A model generated the notes under the pieces. The model searched no databases and was not told the DNA's origin. It saw only the letters and a program-made list of their open reading frames with translations. Of a stretch of DNA of 64,000 nt, positions 33,631-50,118 are shown one piece after another. This DNA is from an uncultured Bacillales bacterium. GTDB taxonomy: Bacteria; Bacillota_I; Bacilli_A; RFN20; CAG-826. The DNA lies in the NCBI GenBank assembly GCA_937902735.1, contig CALELS010000013.1:134523-198522 (forward strand), written 5' to 3'. A program made the position numbers and the translations under genes. Positions within the stretch are counted from its first letter, which is position 1. The number at the start of each line of letters is the position of its first letter.

Positions 33631-33635
33631 TTCGC

Positions 33636-36629
33636 ATGGGATTATTTGGGGATATTAAGAATTGGATTGTTAATGCTTGGACCGTAAGCAATCGCTTTGA
33701 TCCTTATTTTAATAATTTCAATCGGGACTTAAGCTATCTAAAAATTATCAAGGAAGATATAGACCCTGAAATTACAAAGATTTATAACCAGATTAAGGCC
33801 ACAGCTCCTCAAAAATATGCGAAACAAATAGCCCAATATGAAGGAGCGATTGTTAAGATTAGAGACCACAATAATAAAGTTAATAGAATTAACGATGGGA
33901 TGAGTGGCTTTGATTATGACAAAATCTTGGATAACCCGCATCACTTTGATTGCTCCTTAATTTCGAAGTATGTTGAAATAGCTAATTTAATTAAAACCTT
34001 CCCCAAATATGGCTCACCGTATGATGAGTTTGTTGAACATGTTGATGATATACAGAAGTTTTATTACCAGTTAGTAGAAGAATATGATGCTGTTCTTGAA
34101 TACAACGAATTGGCAACGATAGATTCGTCTCTAGGGTATATCGATTCAAGGCACAAAAACCAAATTATTGGAAAAAGAAACACTCTAAAAAATAAGATAT
34201 CTGCTCACGGTAAAACGTTTTATATTTGGAGCAATAATTCAGTAGTTACCAATGCAATTAAAAAACACAACGAAGTGTTTATAGAAGAGAACAAATCAAA
34301 TCCATTATTTAATTCTATTAATGAAAGAAGTTTAGACTCTGAACAAAGAGAAAGTGTTCTGACTGACGAATCTTCAACTTTGGTAGTAGCTGGTGCTGGC
34401 AGTGGGAAAACATTAACAATATGTGGCAAGGTTGAGTATCTTTTAAAAGTTCAAAAGGTGAACCCTTCTGATATTCTTTTACTTTCTTATTCTAAGAAAT
34501 CCGCTGAAGATCTTCAAAAAAAGGTAAGCAAAATTGATAGCAGACTAACCGTGGGCACATTTCATAAAATAGGTCTTGAAGTTTTAAAAGAAACCCAAAA
34601 CAAAACCTTCATGGTCGAAGATCAATATAAGGCAATTATTGAAGCATATTTTAGAGAAGAGATGAGAAAAAGGCCTCATATGCTTCAGACGATTTTAACT
34701 TATTATGGTTTGTATTTAACATCTGATAAGCATGATAAAAAATATAAAAATGAAGGTGAAATGTACGAAGACTTAAGAAAGTCCGATTTTTCAACATTAA
34801 GAACCCAACTTCTTTCATTAACAAACGATATTAATAAACGTGAAACAATTAAAAAAGAGTTAGTAAAGAGCTTTGAAGAAATGGCCATTGCTAACTGGTA
34901 TTTTATTAATGGTATAGATTATATCTATGAAGCCCCATATGAAAAAGATGTCTCCACCGCAGACAAAAGACAATACATGCCAGATTTTCGCTTGCCTAAG
35001 TACAAAATCTATCATGAACATTATGGAATTAATAAACAAGGCAGAGCAGACCAATTTGAAGGTCAAGAAGCAGCGATGTATGTTGCTAATATGCAATGGA
35101 AGAGGACTATTCACCAGCAGAACAACACGGTTTGTATTGAAACCTATTCGTATGAATTTGATGATGGTACTGTCTTCGATAAGTTGGAAAAGGAACTCAA
35201 GAGCAGAGGCGTGATTTTTAAGCCACTTGAGGATGATCAAATATTCAATGCTCTAGAGTCAATTTATGAAGGCCAGGCTTTTAAGTCGTTTATTAACTTG
35301 ATTAGAACATTTCTAAGTCTTTATAAGGCGGTTTATAGAAGTGCTGATGGTTTTGAGGAATTAAAGAAATTTGAGTTCGCAAATAGATATGAAAGAAAGC
35401 GCGCAGATTTTTTCTTAGATATTGTCAAAGACGTTTATCTTTACTACATGGAGTATTTACGTAGAGAGGACAAAATTGACTTTGACGATATGATTCTTCA
35501 ATCAACAATTGATTTAGACAAGACAGATAAATTCAAATACAAATACATTATTGTTGATGAGTTCCAAGATATTTCTGTGAGCAGGATGAAATTCCTTAAA
35601 AAGCTCATTTCTCACGGAGATTCAAAACTATTTGCCGTTGGTGATGACTGGCAGGCTATTTATAGATTCTCTGGATGTGATTTGAATATATTCTTAAAAT
35701 TCCCAGATTACTTTGGTGAATCAGCAATTACTAAAATAACAACCACTCATAGAAATTCGCAGGAACTTCAAGATATTGCTGGACCATTTATCAAGGCTAA
35801 TCCAGAACAATTTGATAAGAAGATTAACTCTGCTCGTCACCTAGAACACCCTGTTCAGATTATGTATTACTCCGATAAGAAATATTATGCCTTTTTGGAT
35901 GTTCTTAAAGAAATTGCAAAGATTAATAAAGAAGCAAAGGTATTGATTTTAGGCAGAAATAATAAGGATTTTGAGGATATTGCATTAGACACCAGAGTGT
36001 ATATTGATTTCAGAGAATCTAATGAAACCAGAACAGTAGTTAAGGTGAGAGATTATCCTAAAATGCAATTATCTTATAGTACAGTTCATGGTTCAAAAGG
36101 TTTAGAAGAAGACTATGTCATTATTATTAACGCAGATGATTCTAGGCTTGGATTCCCAAATAAAATGGAAGATGATGAACTTCTTGATATGGTTTTGAGT
36201 TCAAAAAGTGGCTACGAATATGCTGAAGAAAGACGTCTGTGGTATGTTGCTTTGACCAGAACAAGAAATTATACATACATAATCGCAAACAATGAAAACC
36301 CTTCTATCTTTGTAAAAGAAATAGAAAATCAATGTTTAGTTATGAATCCAAATATGGAAGTAAGCCATGAAGGAGAAATATCTTGTCCTCGCTGCAAATC
36401 CGGTAGATTAGTTTTAAGAGCTAATGAAAGTGATGGCAGCAAATTCTATGGTTGCTCTAACTATCCATATTGCAACTATTCCATTAATGATTTTAGGGCC
36501 GTCAAAAGAAATAAACGTTGTCCTCATTGCGGAGATATCATGGTCTTCAAAAAGGGCCCATATGGAGCTTTTTACGGTTGCCACAATTATCCTAGATGTA
36601 AGCACAAAGAGGAGTATGATGGCAAATAG
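33636..36629 (+). CDS. UvrD/PcrA-like SF1 helicase with a nuclease-like (PDF...EHYG) insertion domain and two C-terminal topoisomerase-type C4 zinc fingers
   Basis: AGAGSGKT (I), IIVDEFQDIS (II), GDDWQAIYRFSG (III), TVHGSKGLEEDYVIII (V), YVALTRTRN (VI); CPRCKSG...YGCSNYPYC and CPHCGD...YGCHNYPRC. Confidence 0.85.
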   Translation: MGLFGDIKNWIVNAWTVSNRFDPYFNNFNRDLSYLKIIKEDIDPEITKIYNQIKATAPQKYAKQIAQYEGAIVKIRDHNNKVNRINDGMSGFDYDKILDNPHHFDCSLISKYVEIANLIKTFPKYGSPYDEFVEHVDDIQKFYYQLVEEYDAVLEYNELATIDSSLGYIDSRHKNQIIGKRNTLKNKISAHGKTFYIWSNNSVVTNAIKKHNEVFIEENKSNPLFNSINERSLDSEQRESVLTDESSTLVVAGAGSGKTLTICGKVEYLLKVQKVNPSDILLLSYSKKSAEDLQKKVSKIDSRLTVGTFHKIGLEVLKETQNKTFMVEDQYKAIIEAYFREEMRKRPHMLQTILTYYGLYLTSDKHDKKYKNEGEMYEDLRKSDFSTLRTQLLSLTNDINKRETIKKELVKSFEEMAIANWYFINGIDYIYEAPYEKDVSTADKRQYMPDFRLPKYKIYHEHYGINKQGRADQFEGQEAAMYVANMQWKRTIHQQNNTVCIETYSYEFDDGTVFDKLEKELKSRGVIFKPLEDDQIFNALESIYEGQAFKSFINLIRTFLSLYKAVYRSADGFEELKKFEFANRYERKRADFFLDIVKDVYLYYMEYLRREDKIDFDDMILQSTIDLDKTDKFKYKYIIVDEFQDISVSRMKFLKKLISHGDSKLFAVGDDWQAIYRFSGCDLNIFLKFPDYFGESAITKITTTHRNSQELQDIAGPFIKANPEQFDKKINSARHLEHPVQIMYYSDKKYYAFLDVLKEIAKINKEAKVLILGRNNKDFEDIALDTRVYIDFRESNETRTVVKVRDYPKMQLSYSTVHGSKGLEEDYVIIINADDSRLGFPNKMEDDELLDMVLSSKSGYEYAEERRLWYVALTRTRNYTYIIANNENPSIFVKEIENQCLVMNPNMEVSHEGEISCPRCKSGRLVLRANESDGSKFYGCSNYPYCNYSINDFRAVKRNKRCPHCGDIMVFKKGPYGAFYGCHNYPRCKHKEEYDGK

Positions 36630-36793
36630 GCAAAAATGCTGACAAACTGTTAAAACGAAGAAAATAGAAAAAAATTTAATATCAACTAACTCTTTGAGTT
36701 AAAAAATATTAATAAAATTTGTTTGGAAAAAAATAGAAAAAGTCCCCTACGGAAATACTTTGTATTTCCTTATATATAATAGGAGGACTATTT

Positions 36794-37204
36794 ATGAAAA
36801 CAGTCAAAAATATGAACAGCGAAAAGCTCTCTTCAGATCTCAAAGAATCGTGGAGAATCGAAGAAAAACTACTGAAAACAAACGATTCACTAACCGATGC
36901 AGAAATTCTGTTTTTAAAGACTAGAGCAGAAGAAGGCGTGCCCCTCGGTGAATTTGACTATGGTCTTTATTATTTGTTGGTGCAGAACGATGAAAAAACT
37001 GCAGAGGAATGGTGGAGTAAATTCTTTTATCACAGTAATGGCTTTGGCCTTTGGAAGGCTAGTGGCATATTTGCTTATTTAGGCGATCAGTATTACGACT
37101 GGTCTATGAGATGCTTGCGAAGAAGCGCTTGGAGGCAGTTTAAGCTTTCTAAGATGATGCTCGCCGATATGAAGAAAAATCCATATAAATTTCCAGAAGC
37201 ATAA
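36794..37204 (+). CDS. Hypothetical protein
   Basis: AGGAGGACTATTT-ATG RBS; no motif. Confidence 0.45.
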   Translation: MKTVKNMNSEKLSSDLKESWRIEEKLLKTNDSLTDAEILFLKTRAEEGVPLGEFDYGLYYLLVQNDEKTAEEWWSKFFYHSNGFGLWKASGIFAYLGDQYYDWSMRCLRRSAWRQFKLSKMMLADMKKNPYKFPEA

Positions 37205-37457
37205 AAGTATTAGGTGGCGTAAATTGCCACTTTTCTTTTAACCACCATCGTGATATGATTTTAAGGTCAAAAATGCCACTTTTATATAATACTTTGTATT
37301 ATATAAGTCCAAGGTCTTGCACCCTGTATCAGGGAATATGTTAGAAGTTTATTGCATTGCAATACTTTTTTAAAAATGCAGATTATTTTGTAATAAAAAT
37401 AAGCACATATTGATAACGTGCACAAAAAATGATAAAATTTGGGCACGAGGTAAATAT

Positions 37458-38513
37458 ATGCACAAGTTACCGCTTGATTATAACTATAACGATATTGATG
37501 TTTTAAAAGCATTAAATTCTGCAAACAATAAGATTGGAGAATTGAATGGCATTATCAATTTATTACCGAACCCGAACATTATTTTAAATGCAGTTATATT
37601 GGGTGAAGCTAAAGAGTCCAGTGAAATCGAAAACATAGTAACTACATTTGATGAAATCTTTAAAGAAATAACGTTGAAAGTTAATAATACTGCCTCTAAA
37701 GAAGTAGTGAATTATCGACAAGCTATTTTAAGCGGCTATAAATTTATTAAGGATAATGGTTTTATTTCTTCAAGAATGTTAATTAATATCCATCACATTA
37801 TTGAACCAGATGTTGGGGGTATTAGAAAAATACCAGGTACAGTTGTTAAGAATACCAAAACTGGTGAAATACTACATACTCCTCCTCAAAACGAAGAAGA
37901 AATTAGAGATTATTTGTCTAATTTGGAAAAATACATTAATTATGATGATTTAGAAGATGTTGATCCAATTATTAAAATGGCAATTATTCATTATCAATTT
38001 GAATCTATTCATCCTTTTCATGATGGGAACGGAAGAACTGGTAGGATGCTTAATGTTTTATATTTAGTGCTTAAAAATAAAATAAGCCTCCCTATCTTAT
38101 ATTTGTCAAAATATATTAATTTCACCAAAGATGAATATTATAAGCATCTCTATAACATTAGGTTAGATAATAAATATATTAAGGATTATTTACTTTACAT
38201 GATTGAAGGCGTTAATAAGATGTCATCTTTTACTATTGATTTCATTAAATCTTTTAGAAATCTGATGGATGACGCTTCAGAGCTAATTAAAGAAAAATGC
38301 CCAAAAATCTATTCTCATGAACTTGTTGAATATCTATTCTATGACTTTTATACAAAAAACGAATATTTAAGAGACGCTCTCAACATTTCTAGAAATACTG
38401 CATCTAAATATTTGAAAGAATTAGAAGAAGCTGGAGTTCTTATTTCTGAAATGGTTGGTAAAGAAAAAATATTTAAAAACGCTTATTTATATTCTCTTAT
38501 CGAAAAATGGTGA
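37458..38513 (+). CDS. Fic-family protein (AMPylase-type motif)
   Basis: HPFHDGNGRTGR Fic motif. Start moved to the ATG at 37458, which has a GAGGT RBS. Confidence 0.85.
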   Translation: MHKLPLDYNYNDIDVLKALNSANNKIGELNGIINLLPNPNIILNAVILGEAKESSEIENIVTTFDEIFKEITLKVNNTASKEVVNYRQAILSGYKFIKDNGFISSRMLINIHHIIEPDVGGIRKIPGTVVKNTKTGEILHTPPQNEEEIRDYLSNLEKYINYDDLEDVDPIIKMAIIHYQFESIHPFHDGNGRTGRMLNVLYLVLKNKISLPILYLSKYINFTKDEYYKHLYNIRLDNKYIKDYLLYMIEGVNKMSSFTIDFIKSFRNLMDDASELIKEKCPKIYSHELVEYLFYDFYTKNEYLRDALNISRNTASKYLKELEEAGVLISEMVGKEKIFKNAYLYSLIEKW

Positions 38514-38837
38514 TAAAAAGAAATGCTTTTATTGCATTTCTCAAAAACATAGTTAAGCGACACAAAACAGTGACTAAAAAATGCCCAAAAACATAGTAGA
38601 CCAACCTATAATTTGGCTTTGTTTTCACAATCTTGGATATCATTTTTCAGCATGTACCGTGTACTCTTATTGTTTTTATGTTCAATAAGGAACTCTTTTT
38701 ATAGGTTAAACCTATAAGAATGAAAGAACTATTGAGCTAATTTGCTTAAAATATACCTATTTTTCGGCGAAATCTAAAAATATACCAACTTACAAGTAAA
38801 ACTTTACATATATGTCTAGTTGTGCTTAAATTATGGT

Positions 38838-39572
38838 ATGAAAACTCTACCAATAATCTTTAAATATGAAGATATAAAGGTATTTTATCCAAATGTAGCA
38901 GCCTTTTATGCTTTTGTTGATCGCGCTTCAAAGCGTGGAGAGATTAAACAAATAAAAAGAGGGATATATGCACTAGTAAATCCATCTACCGGAAATATCT
39001 TTGCAACTAAATTCCAAATAGCAAGCCATCTATTTAATGACGCTTATTTTTCATATCATGAGGCTCTAGAATACTATGGTTTAGCTAATCAATCTTTTGT
39101 TTCCTATTTCACTTATTTAACCCATGTTTATGTTGATGATGTGGTTTTTGATGACATAATATATCATTCAAAAAAGAGCGGATATGATTTAGAAATTCTT
39201 AACCGTATGAAAGAAGAAGATATTCGCGTTGTTTCTTTAGAACGCGCAATAGTGGATTCGATAGATTCTCCTTCTCTTGCGGGTGGTCTTGAAGAAATAG
39301 AATACGCTCTTAGTAATTGTCGTAGACTTAAAATAGATAAGATCGAGATGCTTTTAAAGCATTATGATAAATCATTCTTATATCAGAAAGCCGGATATTT
39401 ATTTGAAAAACATTTTGGTGAAAAAATACCAGAATCGTTTTATAAATTATGTTTATCTAAGATAGGCAACAAGATTAATTATTTTGAATCTAAAGTTGGC
39501 CACTCTAAATTAATACTTAAGTGGAAATTAATGGTGCCATTAGAAAGGAGCATGCCTGATGAATTATACTAG
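38838..39572 (+). CDS. AbiEi-family antitoxin/transcriptional regulator (type IV TA)
   Basis: N-terminal wHTH pattern ASKRGEIKQIKRGIYALVNP (l..G.l.rv.rGvY) typical of AbiEi. Confidence 0.65.
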   Translation: MKTLPIIFKYEDIKVFYPNVAAFYAFVDRASKRGEIKQIKRGIYALVNPSTGNIFATKFQIASHLFNDAYFSYHEALEYYGLANQSFVSYFTYLTHVYVDDVVFDDIIYHSKKSGYDLEILNRMKEEDIRVVSLERAIVDSIDSPSLAGGLEEIEYALSNCRRLKIDKIEMLLKHYDKSFLYQKAGYLFEKHFGEKIPESFYKLCLSKIGNKINYFESKVGHSKLILKWKLMVPLERSMPDELY

Positions 39573-40098
39573 AAAATATATTGAATCATTAAACAAAGAC
39601 AACAATTTCATTCAAAACAATCTTGAAAAAGTAGTTAGGCTTTTAGACGTTCTTATATTTATATCCACTGAATTAGATCCATATGGGGACAAGCTTGTTC
39701 TTAAAGGCGGTACCGCCATTAATTTGATGTATACCAATTTAGCAAGATTAAGCGTTGATATTGATTTAGATTATATTGGTTCACTTGATAAAGAAAAAGC
39801 TAGCAAAGATAGAGATATAATCATGGACGCTTTGGATAATTATATGCTTGGCGTAGGCTATGACATTTCTTCTAAATCTAGAGGAAGTGTTATTCTAGCC
39901 AGTAGAACATATTCATTTACCAATGCTTCTCACAATAAAGACAATATTAAAGTCGAAATCAATTTCATTGATAGAATCCACATTAGTCAAAGCATTAGAA
40001 AGAAAATTACTTATTTTGAAAAAGAAGTAATGGTGCATACTCTTCCTTCTCCGTACTATTGTGGACTAAGAAGTATGAATCATTACTGGTTTTATTGA
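39559..40098 (+). CDS. AbiEii/AbiGii-family nucleotidyltransferase toxin, apparently 3'-truncated (179 aa vs ~280-300 typical)
   Basis: AAAGGAG RBS. LKGGTAINLMY...RLSVDIDLDY matches DUF1814 (lkGGTal...RfSeDiDf). The ORF runs into a reverse-orientation duplicated segment at about 40090. Confidence 0.6.
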   Translation: MNYTRKYIESLNKDNNFIQNNLEKVVRLLDVLIFISTELDPYGDKLVLKGGTAINLMYTNLARLSVDIDLDYIGSLDKEKASKDRDIIMDALDNYMLGVGYDISSKSRGSVILASRTYSFTNASHNKDNIKVEINFIDRIHISQSIRKKITYFEKEVMVHTLPSPYYCGLRSMNHYWFY

Positions 40099-40294
40099 GG
40101 CCATTAAGGTATTCGTCATAATCAATTTCAGCAACGCTTCTTATCGCGTCTTTATGATGATGTTTAACTCTAGGGGAATTTCTCACCTTAAGAGCGGCTT
40201 CTTTACCATCTTCAGCACATACGTAGAACATCTTAATAATGTAATTGTTTCTACCAACGTGTCCGCATTTAGCTTCAACCTCGTAATACCTCAT
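40007..40294 (-). CDS. Truncated paralog of the AKCGHVG small protein (15656..16071); its 3' end is read antisense through the AbiEii remnant
   Basis: GAGGAGG RBS. The first ~62 aa are homologous to ORF 15656, then homology stops near 40090. Confidence 0.45.
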   Translation of the reverse strand: MRYYEVEAKCGHVGRNNYIIKMFYVCAEDGKEAALKVRNSPRVKHHHKDAIRSVAEIDYDEYLNGLNKTSNDSYFLVHNSTEKEEYAPLLLFQNK

Positions 40295-40697
40295 ACTTTT
40301 TGCCTCCTCAACTTTGACGCTGATAGTTTACAACGCCGAGGAAACAAAAATAACGAGTGTGTACTTAATTCATTTCTAAACACAATTTTATCAGTTTAGT
40401 TTTACTTTAGAAAGCACCACAGTCGTTAAAGTAAAGATATGTTCCCGCCTTCAAGGGTAAAGCGGAAAATCTGGGTTGAGAAGAAGATAAAAATAAAAAG
40501 CCAACTTTCCACTTGATTTTTTCAGAGAGCTGGCTCTTTTCAGTTAAGGAAATTGGCACTAAAAGCATATACAATATACTTTTATTCATGCATTATTTCT
40601 TTAAAGCTAATCCCACAATGGTTTCAACGTGGGGTTGAAATGGAAACATGACAAGCTTTGTTATTTTAAGAAAAAAAGCAAAAAATGCTTAGATAGA

Positions 40698-41639
40698 CTA
40701 GAATCTCATCCAACAATTCCTTAAAAATAGTTTAATTGATACTAAATCTTTATCTTCGTAATAGTTAACAAGATTCTTCTTAAATTCATCAACCTTGCCA
40801 TAATCGATTACAAGCAAGCCCTGTCCTTTAGAAATCAAGTAATGATTCGCATATATAATAGCAGTTCTTTTATTGCCGTCATTGTAGATTTGAGTCTTCA
40901 TAACATAAAGGCATAGCTCTATGGCCTTATCGATATCGTCTAATTTGCTTTCTAATAAGTCTCTAATATCTTGCTTTACTTTATCTTCAAATGGGATAGG
41001 TGGAATATAAGAAGAACCTCCAATTGTCACTGGTACACCTCTTATTCTTCCTCCATCAGGAATTGCTAATAGACCTTCATTTACTAGCCTAGCAATATAA
41101 GAAGCTAAGTAATAATCACTTGGAGTTTGAATAACATCTTTATCTAAAATGAACTGCCAGGCGTGCTTTAAATTAATAATCTTTTGAACATCTTCAGCCT
41201 TAACATTTTTAACAATGCCGTTATCTATAATTGCTTCGGTATCTGGAAAAGTGGTTCCCACGCCTTCTAATACTGCTTGATCATAAATAATTTTTTTCAT
41301 ATTGGTACGAGCAAAATCTAAATTGAGAACAACTCTGTCTGACAATTCTTCTTCCCTATAGCCAAGTAAGGCCAGTTCTTTTTCAATTTGTCTAATTTCT
41401 TTTCGTATTGTTTTAGCTTCAACATTATTACGAAGCAAAGTGGTATATAGTTCCTCACTATATTCGCCAACATAAGTAGATTTAACTTTGTCTAATTCTC
41501 TTTTACGAATATATACATATCTTTTATTAGAGATTGTCTTAATCTCGGGAGTGCCATCGTATGGTAAAAGATTTAAACGTGCTTGTAGCTCAGCGCGTCT
41601 GTTGAGTAACTCTTGAATTTTAGAAACTAAATTTTCCAT
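40698..41639 (-). CDS. Fic/Doc-like protein with degenerate motif (TQIYNDGNKRTA)
   Basis: GNKRT core of the Fic/Doc motif without the canonical His. Start at the ATG at 41639, which has a TAAGGAGG RBS. Confidence 0.5.
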   Translation of the reverse strand: MENLVSKIQELLNRRAELQARLNLLPYDGTPEIKTISNKRYVYIRKRELDKVKSTYVGEYSEELYTTLLRNNVEAKTIRKEIRQIEKELALLGYREEELSDRVVLNLDFARTNMKKIIYDQAVLEGVGTTFPDTEAIIDNGIVKNVKAEDVQKIINLKHAWQFILDKDVIQTPSDYYLASYIARLVNEGLLAIPDGGRIRGVPVTIGGSSYIPPIPFEDKVKQDIRDLLESKLDDIDKAIELCLYVMKTQIYNDGNKRTAIIYANHYLISKGQGLLVIDYGKVDEFKKNLVNYYEDKDLVSIKLFLRNCWMRF

Positions 41640-42027
41640 ACAATACCTCCTTAGGGAACTTTTCGCTTTGATTATATTATATTTGTTCCCTAAATTCAAT
41701 GTAAACTATGTTCTAACACAAGCAAAAAGAAATGTTTCCAATAACAACGGTTAAGCATCGATATAAAGCACTTTTTCAATAGACATGTTGCCGGCGACAA
41801 GATGGTTGACACAAATACTAAAAATCATAAAGAAAAAAATATTACTTAATGGGTTTCGGCTCTAACAATTATATTAAAAAGTATATATTATACTTTATTG
41901 TTTCAAAGATAAGCCCACAATTGTCTCAACGTGCGATGACACAAAACTTGAATAATTATCCCCTAACGTGGAGACTAGTTAAATAACATGTCTAAAGGCA
42001 TACAATTGCTAAATAACATGTCTATTA

Positions 42028-43320
42028 CTAATTCTTTAAACAACCAATTGGAATAATGTAGATTCCTTCATTACTTAAATAGCCATATTGATCATCAGTA
42101 ATAATGGCTCTAACTGTTGGAAGAGGCATGGTGTTCTTTGGATTGGCAATATTGTATTCTTTGATTAATCTAACCATTTTTTCTAGATTAGCGATTCCAT
42201 CAGAAATATGTTCGTCGCTACTTTTTACTTCAAATAGGCCATATCTTCCATCAGGTAGATGAATTACAAAGTCACATTCTAATCCAAGTCTATCTCTATA
42301 ATATGAAATTTCTCCATCAATTGTTTTTGAATATACTTCTAAATCTCTTCCCACTAGGCACTCAAAAAAGAAACCTCTTGTTTTTGGATCTTTTGATAAA
42401 CCATCAGGACCGATACCTAATGCAGCACAGGCTAAAGATGGATCGAAAAATTCTTTCTTAGGCAAAGAGCGAATTGATGTTTTACTTCTTATATTTGGAC
42501 ACCATGCTGGAATTTCTTTAATAACAAACAGCCTCAACAAAGCGTTGTAATAATCATAAAATGTACTTTCTGATAATGAGTGTCCAGATTTATTAACATC
42601 AGCAATAATCGTCGTATTATCAACGTTTTGTGAAAGCGTTCTAGCGAGGGATCTCAGCAAAACTCTTGTAGTTGTTGGATTTAAATTCATTCCACTTGCT
42701 TCTTGGATGTCTGTTTCACATACACTAGTTAATGCTTGCTTACCATAAGAAAGTAAATTATGAGGAGGATTAACGACGCCTTCTGGCCATCCGCCTTTCA
42801 CAATTAAATCATTAATTATTTCTTTTTGTTTGTCTAAAATCACTGAGATGGGTCTACCAGGGTTGTCAAAAAGATCTTTTAATGACACTTCTCCAGTAGA
42901 ATCTCCACTTTCAAAGAGTGTCATTGTTGTCATATCAATTTTGACAATTCTCATTGAGCCTGTGTGATTAGTTGAACCAGCTTTTGGAGAAAAAGAACCT
43001 GTTAAAATGAATTGATTTTTGAGATGGGTCTCATCAGCGTAGTTTTTAACTTCATCCCATATTGCAGGATATAGTTGCCATTCATCAATCAATCTTGGTT
43101 TTTCGCCGTCGAGAAAGAGTTTGGGATTAGCTAAATACATTCTATCGAATTCTTCTCTTTGACTTTTTGTGTTAAGTTTAATCTCGCTATTAGCAAAGAA
43201 TTCAGAGGTGTATGTTTTACCACACCACTTAGGACCTCTGATGTGCACCGCAGTAAAGTCGGCTAAATAATTATTAATTATATTATCAATAATTCTTGGA
43301 ATGTATTTTTCTTTTTTCAT
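42028..43320 (-). CDS. P-loop ATPase of the AAA_14/DUF4143 type
   Basis: N-terminal IRGPKWCGKTYT P-loop; ~430 aa architecture typical of AAA_14 + DUF4143 proteins. Confidence 0.55.
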   Translation of the reverse strand: MKKEKYIPRIIDNIINNYLADFTAVHIRGPKWCGKTYTSEFFANSEIKLNTKSQREEFDRMYLANPKLFLDGEKPRLIDEWQLYPAIWDEVKNYADETHLKNQFILTGSFSPKAGSTNHTGSMRIVKIDMTTMTLFESGDSTGEVSLKDLFDNPGRPISVILDKQKEIINDLIVKGGWPEGVVNPPHNLLSYGKQALTSVCETDIQEASGMNLNPTTTRVLLRSLARTLSQNVDNTTIIADVNKSGHSLSESTFYDYYNALLRLFVIKEIPAWCPNIRSKTSIRSLPKKEFFDPSLACAALGIGPDGLSKDPKTRGFFFECLVGRDLEVYSKTIDGEISYYRDRLGLECDFVIHLPDGRYGLFEVKSSDEHISDGIANLEKMVRLIKEYNIANPKNTMPLPTVRAIITDDQYGYLSNEGIYIIPIGCLKN

Positions 43321-43355
43321 GACTAATCACCTCGACATTATTATAGCATAATCAA

Positions 43356-43414
43356 AGTGATTTGCAATGTTTTGTCGGAGTGATTTGCAATATTTCGCTG
43401 GAGTGATTTGCAAT
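43356..43414. repeat. Three 23-bp direct repeats (GAGTGATTTGCAAT core), iteron/operator-like, upstream of the ATPase gene
   Basis: AGTGATTTGCAAT at 43356, 43379 and 43402, with exact 23-bp periodicity. Confidence 0.6.
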
Positions 43415-43644
43415 AGCTAATATACCACGAAATGATGGGTTTATCTGCACTTTTTTTGATTTTTTTAAAAATATTTCAGTTTAGACTACTATTTCGGAGA
43501 ATTAAGCTAACAACAGTCTCACAATGTACTGCTATTCAATATGTATAGCCTTTAATTCGTGGAAACAACAAATGATATGTCTTTTTCACCACCTGAAACA
43601 AAGTATGACGAGCCTTTTCGGGTGATTGGGAACATATCCTTTTG

Positions 43645-43968
43645 TTAAACAGCAACTATAAATTCGACATATGAATTGTGCTCTTTTGCCAAACGTAAAA
43701 ATTCAATAATCTTTTCTAAATAAAATTTGCATTGCTGATATCTTGGTTTATCTATGCTTTTCTCAATTAATTCTATTGCCGTATCAATTTGTGTTCCTTC
43801 AAGAATTTGTTCTTCTCCTCTATCTAGAAAATATGCGTCGCATTTTTCGCGGATTTGTCTAAATAATTCGCTATCAAGCATCTTGTCAAAAGTGCCATCA
43901 TCTGTAAAAATAAATTGTTCAAATATCTCATCTTCCGCAATCGGATTATTTGTTTTATAAACAATCAT
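43645..43968 (-). CDS. Hypothetical protein (start at the internal ATG with an AAAGGAAAC RBS)
   Basis: ORF plus RBS context. Confidence 0.4.
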   Translation of the reverse strand: MIVYKTNNPIAEDEIFEQFIFTDDGTFDKMLDSELFRQIREKCDAYFLDRGEEQILEGTQIDTAIELIEKSIDKPRYQQCKFYLEKIIEFLRLAKEHNSYVEFIVAV

Positions 43969-44016
43969 TTTGTTTCCTTTTGTCGGAAATGATTTTTCTT
44001 TCTTTTTCTTCATATT

Positions 44017-45333
44017 TTATCGTGACCAATGTCCACCTTTCTTAGGACCAACACGTTTAATGAATCCGATTTCTTGCAAAGAAGCAACTATTTTCTTTAC
44101 TCCGCTGACGCTTAGTCCTACGTGCCTTGCGACTTCTTCCAAACTTGAATTTGGGTTATTTAAAAGATAATCGAGGATTTTTCTATGAGTTTCTTTTAGA
44201 TTTGCAGACTCTATTTCTCTAACTTTTCTAGCAGATACGCTATCTGGAACAAAAGCAAATGGCAATGTAACCAAAATAGTTGAACTCGATATATTAAAAG
44301 CATTTTTTGAATATTTGTTTACAATAGTAGGAATTCCATGACCGCTTTGTTCGGCAAAATCAGAAATAGAAAAGATTCTAAAAAGCGCCTCATTAACAGG
44401 CATGCTTTGACCACTATAAAATTGATCAAGCGTTAATCTAAATGGAATTTGTCCATAGGAGAACACTTCAATCCTATCATCATAGATAAATACCGATGGT
44501 GACAACATATGAATCCAGTCGTTATGGACGACAGCATTAATCCATGCTTCTTTAAATGATTCGACATCGAATAAATTTGTTTCTACTCTCACACCACTAG
44601 ACAAATCAACTCTAGTTACATTAAGACTCCTTACATAATTCAATATGTCCCTGCAACCTGTCAGCAAAGAACGATTACCATATTCCGTTCTTTCTGACAT
44701 AGCAGTTTTATCAGTCCCGGAAAATCTTACAACCTTGAGTGATATTGTATTGCTGTCGCTCAATAAATAAGCAACTTTATTAAACTTTCCATAGCTTGTA
44801 ACCAAACCAAAGCTTTCAAAGAAAGATTGTTCATATCTTGGATGAACTCCGTTTGCAGCAAAATAATTGAACAGGTCATTAAATTTTAAATCTTGTAACT
44901 CTGATTCAGACGTTTTCAAAATATCAGAGATGCTCGAACTCATTGCATGCCTAATCATGTTGTTGTCCATTAATTCATCAGACCTTATGTTTCTTATGTA
45001 ATATCTTCCGTCAAAACTATATGGAATGTCATTTCCTTCTGCAGTCAATTCAATGTACAAAAGATTGCCGTCGTATTTTTCTTCAGTTTTATATAACAAT
45101 TGTGGTTGGACAAAATTGGATATCTTATCCCTAATCTCATCAAGATATTTTTTTCCTAGTTTCAAGCCAACAACATCGCCATTATCGTTTACTCCAAAAT
45201 AAATGGTTCCCCGACCATTTTTGTTAACCATTGCCGTCAAAGATTTAATCGCTTTATCAAGTTGTGCCAAGCTTTCTTTAAATTCTTGGTATTCGTTTTC
45301 TATTCCAAAATTCATAAGTTTGACCTCCTGCAA
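44017..45333 (-). CDS. AlbA_2 (Schlafen-like divergent AAA) domain protein with C-terminal wHTH
   Basis: N-terminal ...QEFKESL...GRGTIYFGVNDNGDVVGL pattern of AlbA_2; C-terminal EVARHVGLSVSGVKKIVASLQEIGFIKRVG HTH. Confidence 0.5.
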   Translation of the reverse strand: MQEVKLMNFGIENEYQEFKESLAQLDKAIKSLTAMVNKNGRGTIYFGVNDNGDVVGLKLGKKYLDEIRDKISNFVQPQLLYKTEEKYDGNLLYIELTAEGNDIPYSFDGRYYIRNIRSDELMDNNMIRHAMSSSISDILKTSESELQDLKFNDLFNYFAANGVHPRYEQSFFESFGLVTSYGKFNKVAYLLSDSNTISLKVVRFSGTDKTAMSERTEYGNRSLLTGCRDILNYVRSLNVTRVDLSSGVRVETNLFDVESFKEAWINAVVHNDWIHMLSPSVFIYDDRIEVFSYGQIPFRLTLDQFYSGQSMPVNEALFRIFSISDFAEQSGHGIPTIVNKYSKNAFNISSSTILVTLPFAFVPDSVSARKVREIESANLKETHRKILDYLLNNPNSSLEEVARHVGLSVSGVKKIVASLQEIGFIKRVGPKKGGHWSR

Positions 45334-45357
45334 TATCAGTATACTTTAAAGTCTCTT

Positions 45358-45405
45358 TTTAGTCTACTTTTTAGTCTACTTTTTAGTCTACTTTTCCATT
45401 TCTGA
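45358..45405. repeat. Tandem 12-bp repeats (TTTTTAGTCTAC x3 plus a degenerate fourth) in the promoter region of 44017..45333
   Basis: AGTCTAC at 45371, 45383 and 45395; AGTCTC at 45360. Confidence 0.6.
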
Positions 45406-45609
45406 TTATCAGACAAAAAAATAGATAACAGCATATTGCCATCACCTATTCTTCTTGATATTTATGGTTTATTATATTTATATAATAAGTGATAGATGTT
45501 ATCACTCTTTTAGTCGTAGACATGCTACAGTCTCAACATGGGTACAGTTATAATAAGTGCTGACAAAACATCATTTTTCAGGGTGTGCGATTATTGTAGT
45601 GCTGATATT

Positions 45610-46362
45610 TTATTTTAAAACATTATGTAGTTTTAAGAATTTTGTATCATTCATTTGTTCGTTAGTGACATATTTACCATCTTTAAATAATGCATATGTT
45701 GTAATAGGTGTAGGAGCATTTTGTGCTTCTTCCTTACTATTTATATGAACTGCTTTAAATGGAATATTATTGTCTTTAGCTGTTTGTTCTACAATAGGAA
45801 CATATTTCCCATTGAACGGGCATTGACTTGTATAATACAAAACATAGCCAGATTCTTCAATACGAGGATGTTTTGCACATTCTTTAAACATTGGTTTTGA
45901 TGCATTCTTATCAAATGGAAAATACCATAACTGTATTCCATTATCAGCTTCATCTGCTACTTCAAAACCTTTATACTTTAAATATTTTGGGTCAGCTAAA
46001 AATGGTAATTTCTTTTTGCTAGACAAAATACATAATCCAAGCTTTCCTTTTGACTTAGAATCTTTAATGCAAGCATCTAATAAATCGTTTGAATAGCCAT
46101 GACCTTTAAATGATCCTGATACCCATAAACAATCTATATACATGTAACCATTTGCATCTAATGGATTCCAAGCATTTTCTGCTGGTAAATACTCAATAAA
46201 ACATTTACCTCTTTCAACTGATTTTAAAAATACTAATCCATCATCAAATCTATCTTTTAACCAATTCTTTTTCGATGACACTTGAATATCATTATTATTA
46301 GATATCGCACAACATATATGTTCTTTTTCTAAATTATCTTTTGTTACTAAAATATACTCCAT
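45610..46362 (-). CDS. GNAT-family N-acetyltransferase with YoaP-like C-terminal domain
   Basis: YIDCLWVSGSFKGHGYSNDLL (GNAT motif A-like); C-terminal Cys-containing YoaP-like region. Confidence 0.5.
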   Translation of the reverse strand: MEYILVTKDNLEKEHICCAISNNNDIQVSSKKNWLKDRFDDGLVFLKSVERGKCFIEYLPAENAWNPLDANGYMYIDCLWVSGSFKGHGYSNDLLDACIKDSKSKGKLGLCILSSKKKLPFLADPKYLKYKGFEVADEADNGIQLWYFPFDKNASKPMFKECAKHPRIEESGYVLYYTSQCPFNGKYVPIVEQTAKDNNIPFKAVHINSKEEAQNAPTPITTYALFKDGKYVTNEQMNDTKFLKLHNVLK

Positions 46363-46807
46363 ACTTATACTCCTAAATTAATCTTTCAAACATCCAATCA
46401 GAATAACTAAAACTCCGTCTTACTTCAATGAAATTTAACACATTTGAAAATTTTAAATATTTTGTTTTTGGCTGATATGTTCTTATGCTCAATATAGTTG
46501 CAACTATAAAAAGTTAGGTTTAGTGCTGACAAGTGCCTAAAATATGTTTCCTAAGACATCTCGTTTTTTAGTTACAACCCTTAGTTGAAACTACTTAAAT
46601 GCTGACAAACTTTGAATACCGATTGAATCGCTACAGACTCCAATTATCCGAAATAAGATGAAAATGCCTTAAAATATGTTATTTTTACACTATTTTTAGC
46701 TATTTTGGACTATTTCTTTGTCAGCAAACAAACAGTTTCGACATGTGTCGTCACTACAATAGGGATATATCAAATCGTTTTTTGGATAAGAGTTGTTAGG
46801 GTGTTTT

Positions 46808-47878
46808 TTAAATCCTGTCTCCAAAAGGAAGTGATTTTATATACGATTCCATAAATCCCCAATCAGGTTCGCCATTTTCATCAATTGGCAGTTTTAAAAA
46901 CGAATTCTTCATTTGGTCGAGATTCCATTTTCTTCCGTAGGAATACTTAAATTTTTCCATTTTGATAAGACTACAAAGAAATAAACCAATATATTTATTC
47001 ATTTCATGGTCTCTTAAAAAGAGGACGTTTACGTCATCGCTCGCCCAAAAAGGTTCAAACTGATAGAAGGCCTCGCCAACACTCCCGTTATAGTTAACAG
47101 TAATGCAATTTCCAGAAAACATTGATCCGTTTCCTATTTTTTCTCTAACTCCATTGTTGCTATCTATAGCTCCAATAAAATTAATTTTGCCTTCTTCCAT
47201 ATCTTCTTTTGTTAGTCTTGAACCTTTTTTTATCACGAAAAGTTTATTAAAACTAATCAATTTCCAACCGCTTGTATCAAATTTCATTGGATTATTATTT
47301 TTGGTTCCTAAAGAATTCCTTAAAGAGCCCTCTTTCCCGTTTTCTCGAGATTGGAGCACCTCGACACAATCTTCCATATATTTCCAATCAGGTTCGTTAT
47401 TTTCATCGACAGGGAGTTTTATTTTCATTTGCTCAACAACTGAACTATATACAGCTCTACCATATGAATATTTGAACTGTTCCATGTTTATTAATGTCGC
47501 TAAAAATAAACCGATATTGGCGTTCATTTGAAATTTAGGAATTAGAATGTTGACTCTACCGTGTGATACAGCATAAAACGGGTTTGGTTGATAAAAACAA
47601 TTGCAAAACATATCAACCGTTAAACAGTTTCCATTAAATATTTCAGCCTTTCCATCTCCCTCTTCACCTATAAACTTAACAACACCGTTGTTTGTAGATC
47701 CAGAACTAATCAAAGGAATTGGTCCATCTGAACACTCTTCTTCTTTCAAATCGCCTTTACTCAAAACACAATCAAACAAAGAAGAGATTCCAAATTCTTT
47801 CCAACCAGAAGTATCAATCACCGTCAACACCTCCGTTTTTAACTTTATAAGCATAAAAATCTCTGACAGTTTGTTCAA
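46808..47878 (-). CDS. Specificity (S) subunit with two target-recognition domains (HsdS/BcgIB-like)
   Basis: Two repeated halves, each ending ...ENNEPDWKYMEDCVEVL / ...ENGEPDWGFMESYIKSL. Overlaps the 3' end of the R-M gene. The true start may be 47854. Confidence 0.65.
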   Translation of the reverse strand: MNKLSEIFMLIKLKTEVLTVIDTSGWKEFGISSLFDCVLSKGDLKEEECSDGPIPLISSGSTNNGVVKFIGEEGDGKAEIFNGNCLTVDMFCNCFYQPNPFYAVSHGRVNILIPKFQMNANIGLFLATLINMEQFKYSYGRAVYSSVVEQMKIKLPVDENNEPDWKYMEDCVEVLQSRENGKEGSLRNSLGTKNNNPMKFDTSGWKLISFNKLFVIKKGSRLTKEDMEEGKINFIGAIDSNNGVREKIGNGSMFSGNCITVNYNGSVGEAFYQFEPFWASDDVNVLFLRDHEMNKYIGLFLCSLIKMEKFKYSYGRKWNLDQMKNSFLKLPIDENGEPDWGFMESYIKSLPFGDRI

Positions 47879-49835
47879 AGTCTGATTCTTTTAGAAGAGA
47901 ATAATCCGTCTCCATGTATGCTTCAATCAACCATTCGTCTTCTTCGCGGATGTCCATGTAAACAGATTTGATTGGATCAACCGTTTTGCTTACATAATAG
48001 TCAATCCAGCTTTGAACTCTTTCTCCACCGAGTCCTTTTTTCTTCTCTACTCTAGTATTTTTAAGAATCTTATATCCATCGTCTTTACAATACATTAAGA
48101 ACGTTTTCTCGTTTGGTATCTTTCTTCCGTCTTTGTCTAATTCAAAGGATCCGCTTGAATCCTTTTTGAAATGTGGAACTCCGGTTTCAATTATTAATGT
48201 TGTAACAACAGTAGAAGCAGAGACTCCAAATGTTCCATCAGCAAGAGAGAAAGACGCTAGTAAGGTGTTATTCTCTAGTAAATCTTTATGAAATTGTGTT
48301 GCGTCAAAACCATTAGACTTTGAGCTGCCTATCGCAAACACATAAGGTAAAATCACTGCAAAAAGGCTACCTTTTGGCAATATTTCGCATCCTTTTAAAA
48401 CTAATTTTGCGGCTACAGCATTGTCTTTTCCACCAAATGGCGGATTCATACATGCTCCCACTTTGTAGTTTGAATTATAAGACGGAATTAAGTCATTAAC
48501 ACTCGTAAGTTTTAACATATCACCGTTCAATGCTTGGATTAAATTCAAGCCTATAATTCTGAGAGTGGTTATATAAAACAGATAAATATAGTCTTCGCTT
48601 TCAATTCCAGACACCTTATTTCCATTTACACCACCATAGTTATTGATAATGTGAAGCAAATAAGAAAGTGTAAAGTTTCCAAACCCACTGCAAAATTCAA
48701 CAAAGAAATCATCTTCTTTTAAATCTAACAGCTTAACCATAAAAGTAGTAATGTTGGCTGGCGTTGAGATAATGCTGTTTTTACCGTTCTTGTGGATATA
48801 GATGTACTTATAAATTGTTTCAGAAATCAGGAGTTTGTCTTCGTTTGTTCCGTAACTAATAATTGGGAACACTTTATTAGCTAAATCCTTTAAAAAATCC
48901 AACAATGAGTAGATAGAACTATCCAACTCTTTTTTGGTTTTCATCGATGTACACGTTGATTTAATTAACGAAGTAACAGAAATCTTATTACTTGTATTGG
49001 TGAAAGAATATTTGTCTATTTCTCCTCCAGTTCTCACAATAACGGTTTGCATTTCATCAATTATGGAAACGATGGAGTCACTATCATACATGCCAGTAAC
49101 TACGTTTTTTCTAAAATCATCGTTAAACAAGGCCAAAATACATGTGTTAATAAACAATAGAGAATCCTTAACTTCTGTATACTTAATGTGTTGATTTAAT
49201 GAACTAATAATGCCTTCTATTCTGCTATCAACATCGTTCACGCCGAAAGAACGCTTCGCAGTAGAACTTGGCGCCACGCTATAGCTTGATAATAAATTTG
49301 GATGATAATCAGGACTATCTTTCCATTTTGAATAAGTATCGTATTTTTTATAGTCAATTAGTGTAACAACTTCAGAACAATCCAGTTCATTAAGAGAACA
49401 ATAAACTAAGTAATCTATGTGATTTGATTCGCTATTAACTTCTTGAGCTGCTAAAGCATAGAGTTGATGCTCAATTGCTTTTGATTTTTCGTCCTTATAC
49501 TTATCAGGGGCTTTTAGTTCGATGAACATGAAAATATCGTTACTATGTGGCTTGTAAACAATAATGTCAATTCTAGCTTTCTTTTTACTTGGTCTGCCAA
49601 TCGAGTACTCTTTTTCAAAAGCAATATCAGCCATATCATATCCAAGTTCGTTAACCAATTTGGTTACAACATAAGCTCTAACATATTCTTCATCTCCGGG
49701 GAGTTTAGTAATTGTTCTACTATCCCTCCTTGCTCCATATTGAATCTCGTCCTTAGAGAAATCAAAAGAAGTAATCGCTGGATTGCTAGGCCATTGCTTA
49801 AGATATTCTTCTACAAGCTTTCTAAACGATTCCAT
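47814..49835 (-). CDS. Fused restriction-modification subunit (BcgIA-like): N-terminal HsdR_N-type PD-(D/E)xK nuclease + gamma-class N6-adenine MTase
   Basis: ARIDIIVY...FMFIELKAP (D...ELK); MTase motifs FVEFCSGFGNF (I) and GACMNPPFGG (IV). GAGGAGG RBS. Confidence 0.7.
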   Translation of the reverse strand: MESFRKLVEEYLKQWPSNPAITSFDFSKDEIQYGARRDSRTITKLPGDEEYVRAYVVTKLVNELGYDMADIAFEKEYSIGRPSKKKARIDIIVYKPHSNDIFMFIELKAPDKYKDEKSKAIEHQLYALAAQEVNSESNHIDYLVYCSLNELDCSEVVTLIDYKKYDTYSKWKDSPDYHPNLLSSYSVAPSSTAKRSFGVNDVDSRIEGIISSLNQHIKYTEVKDSLLFINTCILALFNDDFRKNVVTGMYDSDSIVSIIDEMQTVIVRTGGEIDKYSFTNTSNKISVTSLIKSTCTSMKTKKELDSSIYSLLDFLKDLANKVFPIISYGTNEDKLLISETIYKYIYIHKNGKNSIISTPANITTFMVKLLDLKEDDFFVEFCSGFGNFTLSYLLHIINNYGGVNGNKVSGIESEDYIYLFYITTLRIIGLNLIQALNGDMLKLTSVNDLIPSYNSNYKVGACMNPPFGGKDNAVAAKLVLKGCEILPKGSLFAVILPYVFAIGSSKSNGFDATQFHKDLLENNTLLASFSLADGTFGVSASTVVTTLIIETGVPHFKKDSSGSFELDKDGRKIPNEKTFLMYCKDDGYKILKNTRVEKKKGLGGERVQSWIDYYVSKTVDPIKSVYMDIREEDEWLIEAYMETDYSLLKESDFEQTVRDFYAYKVKNGGVDGD

Positions 49836-50026
49836 TATTCTACCTCCTCTATGCTGTGTTTTTTAAACAAGACAGCAAGTTTTCTTTTAATTTTCATAGT
49901 TGGTTCACAGTGTTCGTTTTCCCATCTATTTACACTAATAAAAGCAACTCCCAATTCATCTGCTAATTCTGATTGGGTAAGTAACATCTTTTTTCTTAAT
50001 AATTTAATAGCTTCTGAATATTTCAT
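49835..50026 (-). CDS. Controller (C) protein-like XRE HTH regulator of the R-M operon
   Basis: LTQSELADELGVAFISVNRWENEH. Its TAA overlaps the ATG of the R-M gene (TAATG). Confidence 0.6.
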   Translation of the reverse strand: MKYSEAIKLLRKKMLLTQSELADELGVAFISVNRWENEHCEPTMKIKRKLAVLFKKHSIEEVE

Positions 50027-50087
50027 TACGTAATTTACAAATCTACTTTAATATATCACTTTTATCTCATTTCTTCATCATTGATTG

Positions 50088-50118
50088 TAATAAAAAGCCA
50101 CCTTCAGGCATGGGTGGC
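50088..50118 (-). terminator. Putative intrinsic terminator on the minus strand
   Basis: GCCACC-TTCAGGCATG-GGTGGC hairpin followed, on the minus strand, by TTTTTATT. Confidence 0.4.

Follow-up and report, generated by a model that had tools for sequence, protein, structure and literature searches.

In staphylococci, the Ccr large serine recombinases (LSRs) of SCCmec and other staphylococcal cassette chromosome (SCC) elements enter the 3′ end of an rRNA methyltransferase gene, rlmH (orfX), and leave it functional. Stacked SCC elements, which are mostly 10 to 60 kb long, have direct repeats of that gene end as their boundaries, and pseudo-SCC elements lacking ccr can be mobilized in trans. The 3′ end of rumA is likewise a published LSR hotspot, occupied in Firmicutes by serine-integrase ICEs (integrative and conjugative elements) and IMEs (integrative and mobilizable elements), among them the vanG elements, ICE-r, ICESp2905, ICE_Spy2096_rumA, IME_SpnAP200_rumA, and CTn5 (PMC4120198, PMC4701971, PMC5704250). 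The vanG elements and ICE-r enter rumA at the GA of a Glu codon, the 11th from the gene end and part of the same His-Val-Glu (HVE) block considered below, in S. agalactiae, S. anginosus, E. faecalis, S. dysgalactiae, and Roseburia, at times in tandem, and in many genomes the elements encode short tails that resemble the native rumA end (PMC4120198). In streptococci, rumA is the target of ICEs and IMEs that have one serine integrase and that swap the 3′ ends of rumA and of the integrase gene (PMC4701971, PMC5704250). Tandem arrays are attributed to decay into cis-mobilizable elements (CIMEs) followed by accretion (PMC5704250), for which ICESt1/ICESt3 at fda of Streptococcus thermophilus provide the model (Pavlovic 2004 and Bellanger 2011, as cited in PMC5704250), and tandem serine-recombinase islands with end copies at their seams also occupy the conserved 3′ end of ssrA in Dehalococcoides (PMC3146451). 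Here we describe a 64-kb stretch of DNA from an uncultured Bacillales bacterium (the window), in which short repeats between genes are very probably attachment-site (att) junction scars of serial insertions into a rumA/rlmCD-type 3′ end.

The target gene of the hotspot is rumA at 56113-57471 on the minus strand, which encodes a 452-aa rumA/rlmCD-type (uracil-5) RNA methyltransferase (Pfam tRNA_U5-meth_tr, 3.5e-29) whose translation ends in VDLFPMTY-HVETIVGLYRKDKQ and a stop codon. Reverse-complemented, the motif GTYTCRACRTG reads CAY-GTY-GAR-AC and so matches the codons for His-Val-Glu-Thr close to the RumA C terminus; it occurs at 40621, 41923, 45530, and 46735, always on the plus strand and always in intergenic DNA. 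Read on the strand of rumA, these four copies and a degenerate fifth give H(V/C)ET followed by 7 to 12 codons and a stop, and the live gene ends alike. We refer to the five sequences, all on the minus strand, as relics. Relic D reads HVETVCLLTKK and a stop (46710-46745, with the first base of the His codon at 46745; CAT GTC GAA ACT GTT TGT TTG CTG ACA AAG AAA TAG). Farther from rumA follow relic C, HVETVACLRLKE and a stop (45502-45540; His codon from 45540), the degenerate relic E, HCETVVSL.. and a stop (43476-43526; His codon from 43526; CATTGTGAGAC..., HCETVVSLILRNSSLN), relic B, HVETIVGLSLKQ and a stop (41933-41895; His codon from 41933), and relic A, PHVETIVGLALKK and a stop (40631-40593; His codon from 40631; entered as HVETIVGLALKK in the feature list). 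When the 64 kb were scanned in all six frames for H[VIC]E[TSC][IVLM], the matches were the five relics, the live gene, and one stray; the stray match excepted, all relics were downstream of rumA and on its strand. Because the scan found only co-oriented downstream relics besides the live gene and the stray match, we conclude that the repeats are displaced copies of the rumA 3′ end.

An initial annotation of the window had listed the repeats as a set of strings, and a string check found every one of them in place; that list lacked a sixth copy, degenerate and located at 43526-43476, as well as the family's source, the live gene end at 56157-56113. Frequencies above chance were found for GTYTCRACRTG (4 copies against 0.20 expected) and for a second motif, TGCTGACAA (5 against 0.61, at 36637, 45558, 46524, and 46600 on the plus strand and 46718 on the minus strand, all within 36.6 to 46.7 kb), with the caveat that both patterns were written post hoc from their copies and the enrichment figures are therefore inflated. 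Independent support came from a 49-nt alignment of 40583-40631 with 41886-41933, the sites of relics A and B, which at a z of 13.5 was the only strongly significant pair when all pairs among twelve intergenic regions between 23.8 and 54.3 kb were compared. The looser motif in the annotation, TGACA(C)AAAC, showed no enrichment (0 against 1.0 expected, or 28 against 26.7 with one mismatch), and for that reason copy G at 38559-38568 on the plus strand (GACACAAAAC) is a chance-level match outside the system. The family escaped a generic repeat finder, neither Rfam (at gathering thresholds) nor a search for tRNAs gave a match, and megablast gave none for the region against plasmids or for the left 24 kb against phages. 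Viral contigs gave no match in a 20-mer scan and chance matches only in a 14-mer scan, and exact-protein look-ups of the window proteins returned the same contig only.

The five relics bound five inserted segments between 56.16 and 40.59 kb, namely, one 9.4-kb LSR element, element X, and four recombinase-less cassettes of 1.2 to 2 kb. Between relics D, C, E, B, and A, the four cassettes encode only a GNAT protein, a Schlafen protein with a 122-aa product, a DUF4143 ATPase, and a Fic-like protein, respectively, all assigned by Pfam and all on the minus strand. Cassette 1 encodes a 250-aa GNAT acetyltransferase with a YoaP-like C-terminal domain (45610-46362) and has an upstream (P) arm of ~66 nt (45541-45607) with a distal TGCTGATA at 45600-45607 and a proximal TGCTGACAA at 45558-45566, 16 nt from the core and 17 nt from the CA of the His codon. 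Cassette 2 encodes a 438-aa Schlafen/AlbA_2-HATPase_c_4-wHTH protein and the 122-aa open reading frame (ORF) (43645-45333); directly upstream of the Schlafen/AlbA gene, 45355-45395 holds three overlapping 17-nt copies with a 12-nt period (CTTTTTAGTCTA unit). Cassette 3 encodes a 430-aa AAA_14-DUF4143 ATPase (42028-43320), and its P arm, TTCAAGTTTTGTGTCATCG (41934-41953), adjoins relic B. Cassette 4 encodes a DUF6788/Fic-like protein (40698-41699) whose relatives are called as 313 aa, and its P arm, KLVMFPFQP (40632-40658), is itself rumA-like. The four cassettes thus have the makeup of CIMEs, with attL- and attR-type flanks and without integration or transfer genes.

Relics of the same kind were found downstream of rumA in other genomes. 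The comparison covered 80 loci around rumA homologues from GTDB species representatives and four metagenome loci, 84 in all, and related loci and contigs are designated here by L and a number. The nearest rumA homologues, at 71% amino-acid identity, belong to uncultured Erysipelotrichaceae rumen metagenome-assembled genomes. Among the 84 loci, the HVET-type peptide motif was found 89 times in sense and 4 times in antisense orientation, and at least 14 loci carried one or two relics 0.3 to 8 kb downstream of the live rumA (Erysipelotrichales, Bacillales, Lachnospiraceae, Haloplasmataceae, Trichococcus, and others). In every case the likeness between relic and live end began at the His codon, often ran past the stop, and gave way to unrelated sequence upstream of the His codon. 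Screening of metagenomes with a 24-mer of relic D returned 17 loci, many with several tandem relics. Relic D and the next 190 nt (46745-46519) were 80 to 83% identical to the live rumA end of L125 and the sequence downstream of it, again starting at the His codon. L124 and L125 matched the window at 95% nucleotide identity from 41891 and 41764, respectively, to exactly 40621, the end of the core, and their rumA bodies were only 64% identical to that of the window. Homologues of the Fic-like protein with 95 to 97% identity were abundant in metagenomes, and in the three contig sets examined the Fic-like gene lay 1 to 4 kb downstream of rumA with different genes between.

Arms on the two sides of the core were joined in different combinations. 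In a table of 35 junctions, one upstream arm of ~60 nt (ending in TTGTCAGCACTTATTATAACTGTACC before the CAT) was joined to six different downstream arms, and the downstream arm encoding VCLLTKK and a stop was joined to at least seven different rumA bodies. In L219 the window's D-type P arm was fused directly to the window's C-type downstream (P′) arm, and the GNAT cassette was absent from that position; the GNAT-YoaP cargo and the cassette 1 P arm stood in another array context in the same contig. The cassette 1 P arm was also found, with different downstream arms, in L219, L222, L224, L227, and L125. Members of the DUF4143 ATPase family were cargo at rumA in L136, L138, L145, L228, and L238, AAA_14-DUF4143 ATPases, Fic, and RhuM recurred as cargo at rumA in distant Bacillota, and recurrence across phyla-level distances was seen for DUF4143 ATPases, Fic, RhuM, and GNAT proteins. 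The annotation had suggested asking whether cassette content between the repeats varies in related genomes, and it does, in arm joins, in cargo, and in the missing GNAT cassette of L219. We conclude that the segments between relics are mobile and modular and that the arms on either side of the core recombine in different combinations. We note that between live rumA and relics in L136, L138, L145, L163, L189, L228, and L238, cargo ORFs were nearly all co-oriented with rumA.

A recombinase gene adjoins the live end of rumA. LSR1 (54344-56080, plus strand) encodes a 578-aa large serine recombinase with Pfam Resolvase, Recombinase, and Zn_ribbon_recom domains and is convergent with rumA, its stop codon lying 32 nt from that of rumA and 76 nt from the core. 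Because LSR1 adjoins rumA in this convergent arrangement, the segment between the live junction and relic D, element X (~9.4 kb, 46746-56156, minus strand), is read as an integrated LSR element; it is the youngest of the stacked segments. Besides LSR1, X carries small ORFs, a DprA-like gene, an HTH gene, a gene for an HSDR_N_2 protein, and an hsdS-like gene. Pfam matched DprA-like, HSDR_N_2, and Methylase_S domains on the larger X ORFs and HTH_3 on a short ORF; relaxase, coupling-protein, and VirB4 domains were absent from the larger ORFs, several short X ORFs lying outside the scan. The attL-like live junction (56113-56157, minus strand) consists of the core CATGTGGAAAC (56157-56147) and the element-supplied C terminus IVGLYRKDKQ with its stop, the P′ half-site being at ~56155-56130, and the P half-site of X, ATATATCCCTATTGTAGTGACGACA, is at ~46771-46746.

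When the two ends of X were joined, they gave an attP of 54 bp, ATATATCCCTATTGTAGTGACGACA-CA-TGTGGAAACTATAGTAGGACTATATCG, that is an imperfect palindrome centered on the CA of the His codon. Symmetry about CA was 19/28 in X, with 13 for the next-best center, and two independent elements had the same center, L238 with 21/28 (LSR 58% identical to LSR1 and in the same convergent position beside rumA) and L239 with 18/28 (LSR 50% identical and inside an array). The next-best centers scored 11 to 13, and the 99.9th percentile of the maximum over 28 centers in shuffled sequences was 17. The GA of the Glu codon was rejected as the symmetry center of X, where it scored 6/28, and it was outside the three best centers in L238 and L239. 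Both the size and the symmetry of the reconstructed attP agree with those of known LSR attP sites. Linkage of the core wobble positions to the left and right arms (23/112 pairs against 1/10) was not of a kind from which the crossover could be placed. The 54 bp of X, and nothing outside them, also flanked a 1.76-kb LSR-less cassette in L219 (51/54 identical) that encodes HTH-DUF3791, DUF3990, and GNAT proteins; the same three-gene set was present in L227, and in both contigs its att sites were of the 54-bp X type. The window's own cassettes had arms unlike those of X, and their CA symmetry was marginal or absent. We infer from sequence that the LSR probably joins DNA at the CA of the His codon, an assignment that is well supported.

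The second motif, TGCTGACAA, does not have a single origin. Its copy in relic D (46718-46726) is coding, TTG CTG ACA AAG for Leu-Leu-Thr-Lys, and the other copies are in the conserved arms of one cassette family, which we call the chassis. The chassis consists, in order, of the VCLLTKK tail and stop with the sense copy, a leader of ~190 nt, the cargo, and a 3′ arm of ~66 nt. In the window the leader, whose conservation was seen in alignments, is at 46519-46709 on the minus strand and contains inverted copies 118 nt (copy I, 46600-46608) and 194 nt (copy H, 46524-46532) downstream of the sense copy, and the 3′ arm starts with T(A/G)TCAGCA at 45600 and has a further copy at 45558. The cargo was a GNAT-YoaP protein in the window and L219, a protein of 161 aa in L125, of 257 aa in L224, and of 329 aa in L227, and an HTH-DUF3990 protein with a GNAT protein in L222, L223 having the same ORF pair by size. 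A circular chassis is predicted to hold the inner copies as GTCAGCA-N17-CA-N17-TGCTGAC. In a promoter scan, copy H was the −35 element of a promoter-like site (TTGTCA-18-TATAGT, 10/12) upstream of the cargo gene; as a −35 box in all copies the motif was rejected, since only copy H fits. We conclude that TGCTGACAA is not the crossover site but is partly coding and partly a cassette-arm motif, which most likely would serve as an outer or accessory recombinase-binding box, one copy doubling as a promoter element.

Copy F (36634-36648, plus strand; AAATGCTGACAAACT) is a 15-mer identical to 46597-46611, which contains copy I, and is located 8 nt past a helicase stop codon. Because L235 and L237 are collinear with the window over 36402-37342, across copy F and without the motif, copy F is not a junction, and the same collinearity ruled it out as the right end of a second recombinase element. 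The initial annotation's idea of recombination sites at an insertion hotspot stands for the copies between 40.6 and 46.75 kb, and so does its defense island assembled from cassettes; cassette content between those copies differs among genomes. The copies at 36636 and 38559 mark no cassette boundary, the former being spanned by collinear related contigs and the latter at chance level. The two motifs had been taken for one composite repeat and instead have separate origins, CAYGTYGARAC being the core in a conserved codon block and TGCTGACAA belonging to the arms of particular cassette families. The cassettes had been called often oppositely oriented, which is wrong for 40.6 to 46.8 kb, where all cassette genes are on the minus strand, as is rumA.

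We propose that an incoming element would recombine within the His-Val-Glu-Thr block (CAYGTNGARAC), within which all junctions are located, and would supply a replacement C terminus by which rumA stays intact. The former 3′ end would be displaced downstream and persist as an in-frame relic. Five such events are stacked between 56.16 and 40.59 kb, and the four older recombinase-less cassettes would represent elements that have decayed or else satellites that recombinases of this kind move in trans. Several observations weigh against this model. The crossover position comes from dyad symmetry only, and streptococcal elements in the literature use a dinucleotide 6 nt away, the GA of the Glu codon. 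Most relic-bearing loci lacked an LSR within 10 kb, and none of the 10 cargo proteins scanned from relic-bearing GTDB loci was a recombinase. The cassette arms that bear TGCTGACAA scored a marginal 14 to 15/28 about CA, near the 95th percentile of the null, and the Fic-like, Schlafen, and ATPase cassettes showed no clear CA symmetry. The real 15-mer identity of copy F is unexplained by the model, and excision and integration at this locus are predicted activities.

Alternative accounts of the repeats differ widely in how well they fit. Chance matching in AT-rich intergenic DNA suffices for TGACA(C)AAAC and for the copy at 38559, but for the main copies it is refuted by counts of 4 against 0.2 and 5 against 0.6 expected, by the relic A and B pair at a z of 13.5, and by replication across genomes, and as a general account its probability is close to nil. 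Hardly more probable is a family of miniature inverted-repeat transposable elements (MITEs), repetitive extragenic palindromic (REP)-like intergenic sequences, or insertion sequence-end remnants that spread by transposition; the initial annotation had spoken of a repeat family and offered MITE remnants as one possibility. The sequences are indeed short, degenerate, and intergenic, and the 11-nt inverted pair at 46600/46718 looks like terminal inverted repeats. They are, instead, in-frame relics of a gene end, co-oriented with and downstream of one gene and found nowhere else in the 64 kb, and the same pattern recurred in 84 other loci; the scanned ORFs included no transposase, Rfam had no match, and no pattern of target-site duplication was seen. 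A regulatory function of the TGCTGACAA copies, as −35 boxes or as the operator of an island-encoded regulator, we regard as unlikely. Copy H is well placed for it upstream of the GNAT gene with its 10/12 match to TTGTCA-18-TATAGT, the spacing to a −10-like hexamer is by eye equivalent in other cassettes, and copy F is upstream of a 136-aa gene; yet the promoter scan of the region found no excess of promoter-like sites (27 against 32 expected), copies I and D and the P-arm copies have by eye no −10 partner, copy D is coding, and copy F is antisense to the surrounding plus-strand genes. Slightly less likely again is that TGCTGACAA/TTGTCAGCA is the arm-type or accessory site of another recombinase, such as a heterobivalent tyrosine integrase, or of an excision factor, so that the chassis would be an integron-like system apart from the LSR element. 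Five copies in both orientations within ~300 bp of conserved arms do resemble lambda-type attP arm sites, and LSR attP sites normally need no accessory sites. Pfam, however, matched no tyrosine recombinase among the scanned ORFs of the window, L219, L222, L227, L228, and L224 (some short ORFs were outside the scan), the P arms of L216 and L226 have both CTCAGCA at N17 and the inner motif of X type, TATTGTAG, a combination that points to a single family of sites, and TGCTGACAA is not kept in the P arm of L125.

Closer to the model of serial insertion, and a minority reading that we take seriously, is that the small cassettes are passive wreckage, former full LSR elements reduced by deletion to one or two genes and immobile since. 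Integration, decay to a CIME, and accretion is the standard route to tandems (PMC5704250), the Fic-like, Schlafen, and ATPase cassettes have no symmetric arms, and most arrays have no nearby LSR. Against passive decay, the same ~230-nt and 66-nt arms surround at least five cargoes that are unrelated to one another, conservation around an LSR-less cassette covers precisely the 54-bp attP of X and no more, and identical cassettes occur in different array contexts; trimming to the same ends is not expected of independent deletions. Movement of the small cassettes in trans, in place of passive persistence, is about as tentative a proposal. Somewhat more doubtful is the extension that the rumA 3′ end of many Bacillota from gut and rumen is home to a true system of gene cassettes, analogous to integrons and run by large serine recombinases, in which cassettes would be captured, shuffled, and exchanged in trans by recombinases on larger sister elements. 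Cassettes in such a system would comprise one to three genes with their own promoter and minimal att arms, the latter being either a bare 54-bp attP or the chassis, in which a 5′ arm of ~230 nt and a 3′ arm of 66 nt hold five TGTCAGCA boxes. The methyltransferase frame would be restored at each event, and the outcome would be variable arrays of defense- or toxin-like genes (DUF4143 ATPases, Fic/RhuM, GNAT, and Schlafen).

The array shares with the known rumA ICEs and IMEs the target gene, the conserved HVE block ~11 to 13 codons before the stop, an LSR at the rumA-proximal end of the element, tandem insertions, imperfect inverted repeats at the element ends, and native-like short C termini encoded by the element. 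It differs in that the inferred center of attP symmetry is the CA of the His codon and not the GA of the Glu codon, and in that LSR1 has its own stop codon 76 nt from the core, so there is no translational 3′ swap and a separate 13-codon rumA tail comes from the element. Further differences are that the larger X ORFs scanned, several short ones lying outside the scan, have no conjugation or mobilization domain, that the hosts are uncultured Erysipelotrichaceae-like gut and rumen bacteria, and that the arrays consist mostly of recombinase-less cassettes of 1 to 2 kb. As in the CIMEs of ICESt1/ICESt3, recombinase-less segments keep attL and attR and are stacked beside an integrase-encoding element with copies of the target 3′ end at the seams. 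Those elements, however, use tyrosine integrases and long identity segments, whereas here there is an LSR and a short core, and a single chassis is found with different cargo, as would not be predicted from simple decay. Dehalococcoides ssrA islands differ in targeting a tmRNA gene and in that each island usually keeps its own recombinase (PMC3146451).

With SCC islands the array has in common an rRNA methyltransferase 3′ end left functional as the target, gene-end repeats, and stacking. In contrast to SCC islands, the target is of the tRNA_U5-meth_tr (RumA/RlmCD) family and not rlmH, cassettes are of single genes and not of 10 to 60 kb, and the recombinase clade probably differs. By analogy, the system appears to work like an SCC island without being a member of that group. 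Integron cassettes are similar in forming co-oriented, mostly single-gene arrays beside a recombinase gene, each boundary being marked by a recombination site and the content varying between strains. Unlike integrons, the array has no IntI tyrosine recombinase among the scanned ORFs, its cassettes apparently have their own promoter, its platform is the 3′ end of a housekeeping gene, and its boundaries are explained by coding relics, no attC-type site being evident, for which no attC-model scan was made.

The hotspot at rumA is known, and what is new here is its unusually cassette-like form. Its published range (streptococci, enterococci, Clostridioides, and Roseburia) is widened to uncultured Erysipelotrichaceae-like bacteria and many other Bacillota. 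As each relic corresponds to one integration, the assembly order of the island can be read from rumA outwards, and displaced relics from HVET to the stop downstream of rumA offer a cheap marker for delimiting islands in draft genomes. Three attP sites, compact (~54 bp) and independent of one another, are predicted for one LSR clade, a conserved genomic attB being the partner of each, and such recombinase-site pairs are sought as genome-engineering tools. If cassettes do move in trans, the array would represent integron-like shuffling of defense genes in Gram-positive bacteria, which lack classical integrons.

The window holds a second large serine recombinase gene, LSR2 (22042-23781, minus strand), whose product is 46% identical to LSR1. 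No rumA-type relic is near it, and the six-frame scan of the window detected none on the plus strand in its vicinity. L128 contains, inside a rumA array and in the orientation opposite to rumA, a 74-nt stretch (7646-7719) that is 78% identical to 21990-22062 of the window and comprises a terminator-like hairpin and the last LSR2 codons; it may be a remnant of an LSR2-like element. Intact paralogous genes for membrane proteins of ~59 aa are located at 4313-4490 and 21813-21990, 17.5 kb apart and 79% identical in nucleotide sequence, and the latter ends 52 nt from the LSR2 stop with a C terminus, ...IIVACLPRKD and a stop, that is loosely RumA-tail-like.

A second junction-like site, GCACCCTGTATCAGGGAATATG, lies at 37316-37342 and is an imperfect palindrome (CCCTG..CAGGG), and the 18-mer 37325-37342 recurs as an inverted pair near 12.7 kb (12685-12704, minus strand; 12745-12760, plus strand). 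L230 and L232 to L235, which come from other samples, are collinear with the window to ~37342 and then continue into unrelated sequence. A 12-nt inverted match of borderline significance, CCTTGGACTTAT/ATAAGTCCAAGG (21940-21951 and 37303-37314), has one copy ~90 nt past the LSR2 stop and the other beside the 37.3-kb junction, and the two might be the ends of a ~15-kb element with a D5-like primase, a Type ISP enzyme, and a helicase. Within this interval, 28042-36629 is one co-directional block whose products are a 1615-aa Type ISP restriction-modification enzyme, a protein of 243 aa that matches nothing in Pfam, and a helicase of the UvrD family that bears two zinc ribbons of topoisomerase type. 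L230 carries a diverged version of the block, with 74% nucleotide identity over most of the Type ISP gene and 95% from its 3′ end (~32.6 kb) on. The 941-bp module 36402-37342, which contains the zinc-ribbon tail of the UvrD-type helicase and the 136-aa gene, has counterparts of 90% identity in L235 and L237, which there come after another defense block, of SNF2, SMC-like, cytosine methylase, and MutH-like genes, and not after the Type ISP enzyme and helicase. At 39559-40294, a truncated AbiEii toxin gene (179 aa) is overlapped by a 95-aa ORF on the opposite strand, an arrangement suggestive of a seam at which the rumA array meets the plus-strand block to its left. Finally, on the other side of rumA, a perfect 111-nt direct repeat (62685-62795 and 63252-63362) precedes two adjacent genes of ~150 aa (62796-63251 and 63363-63824) and is a recent tandem duplication.

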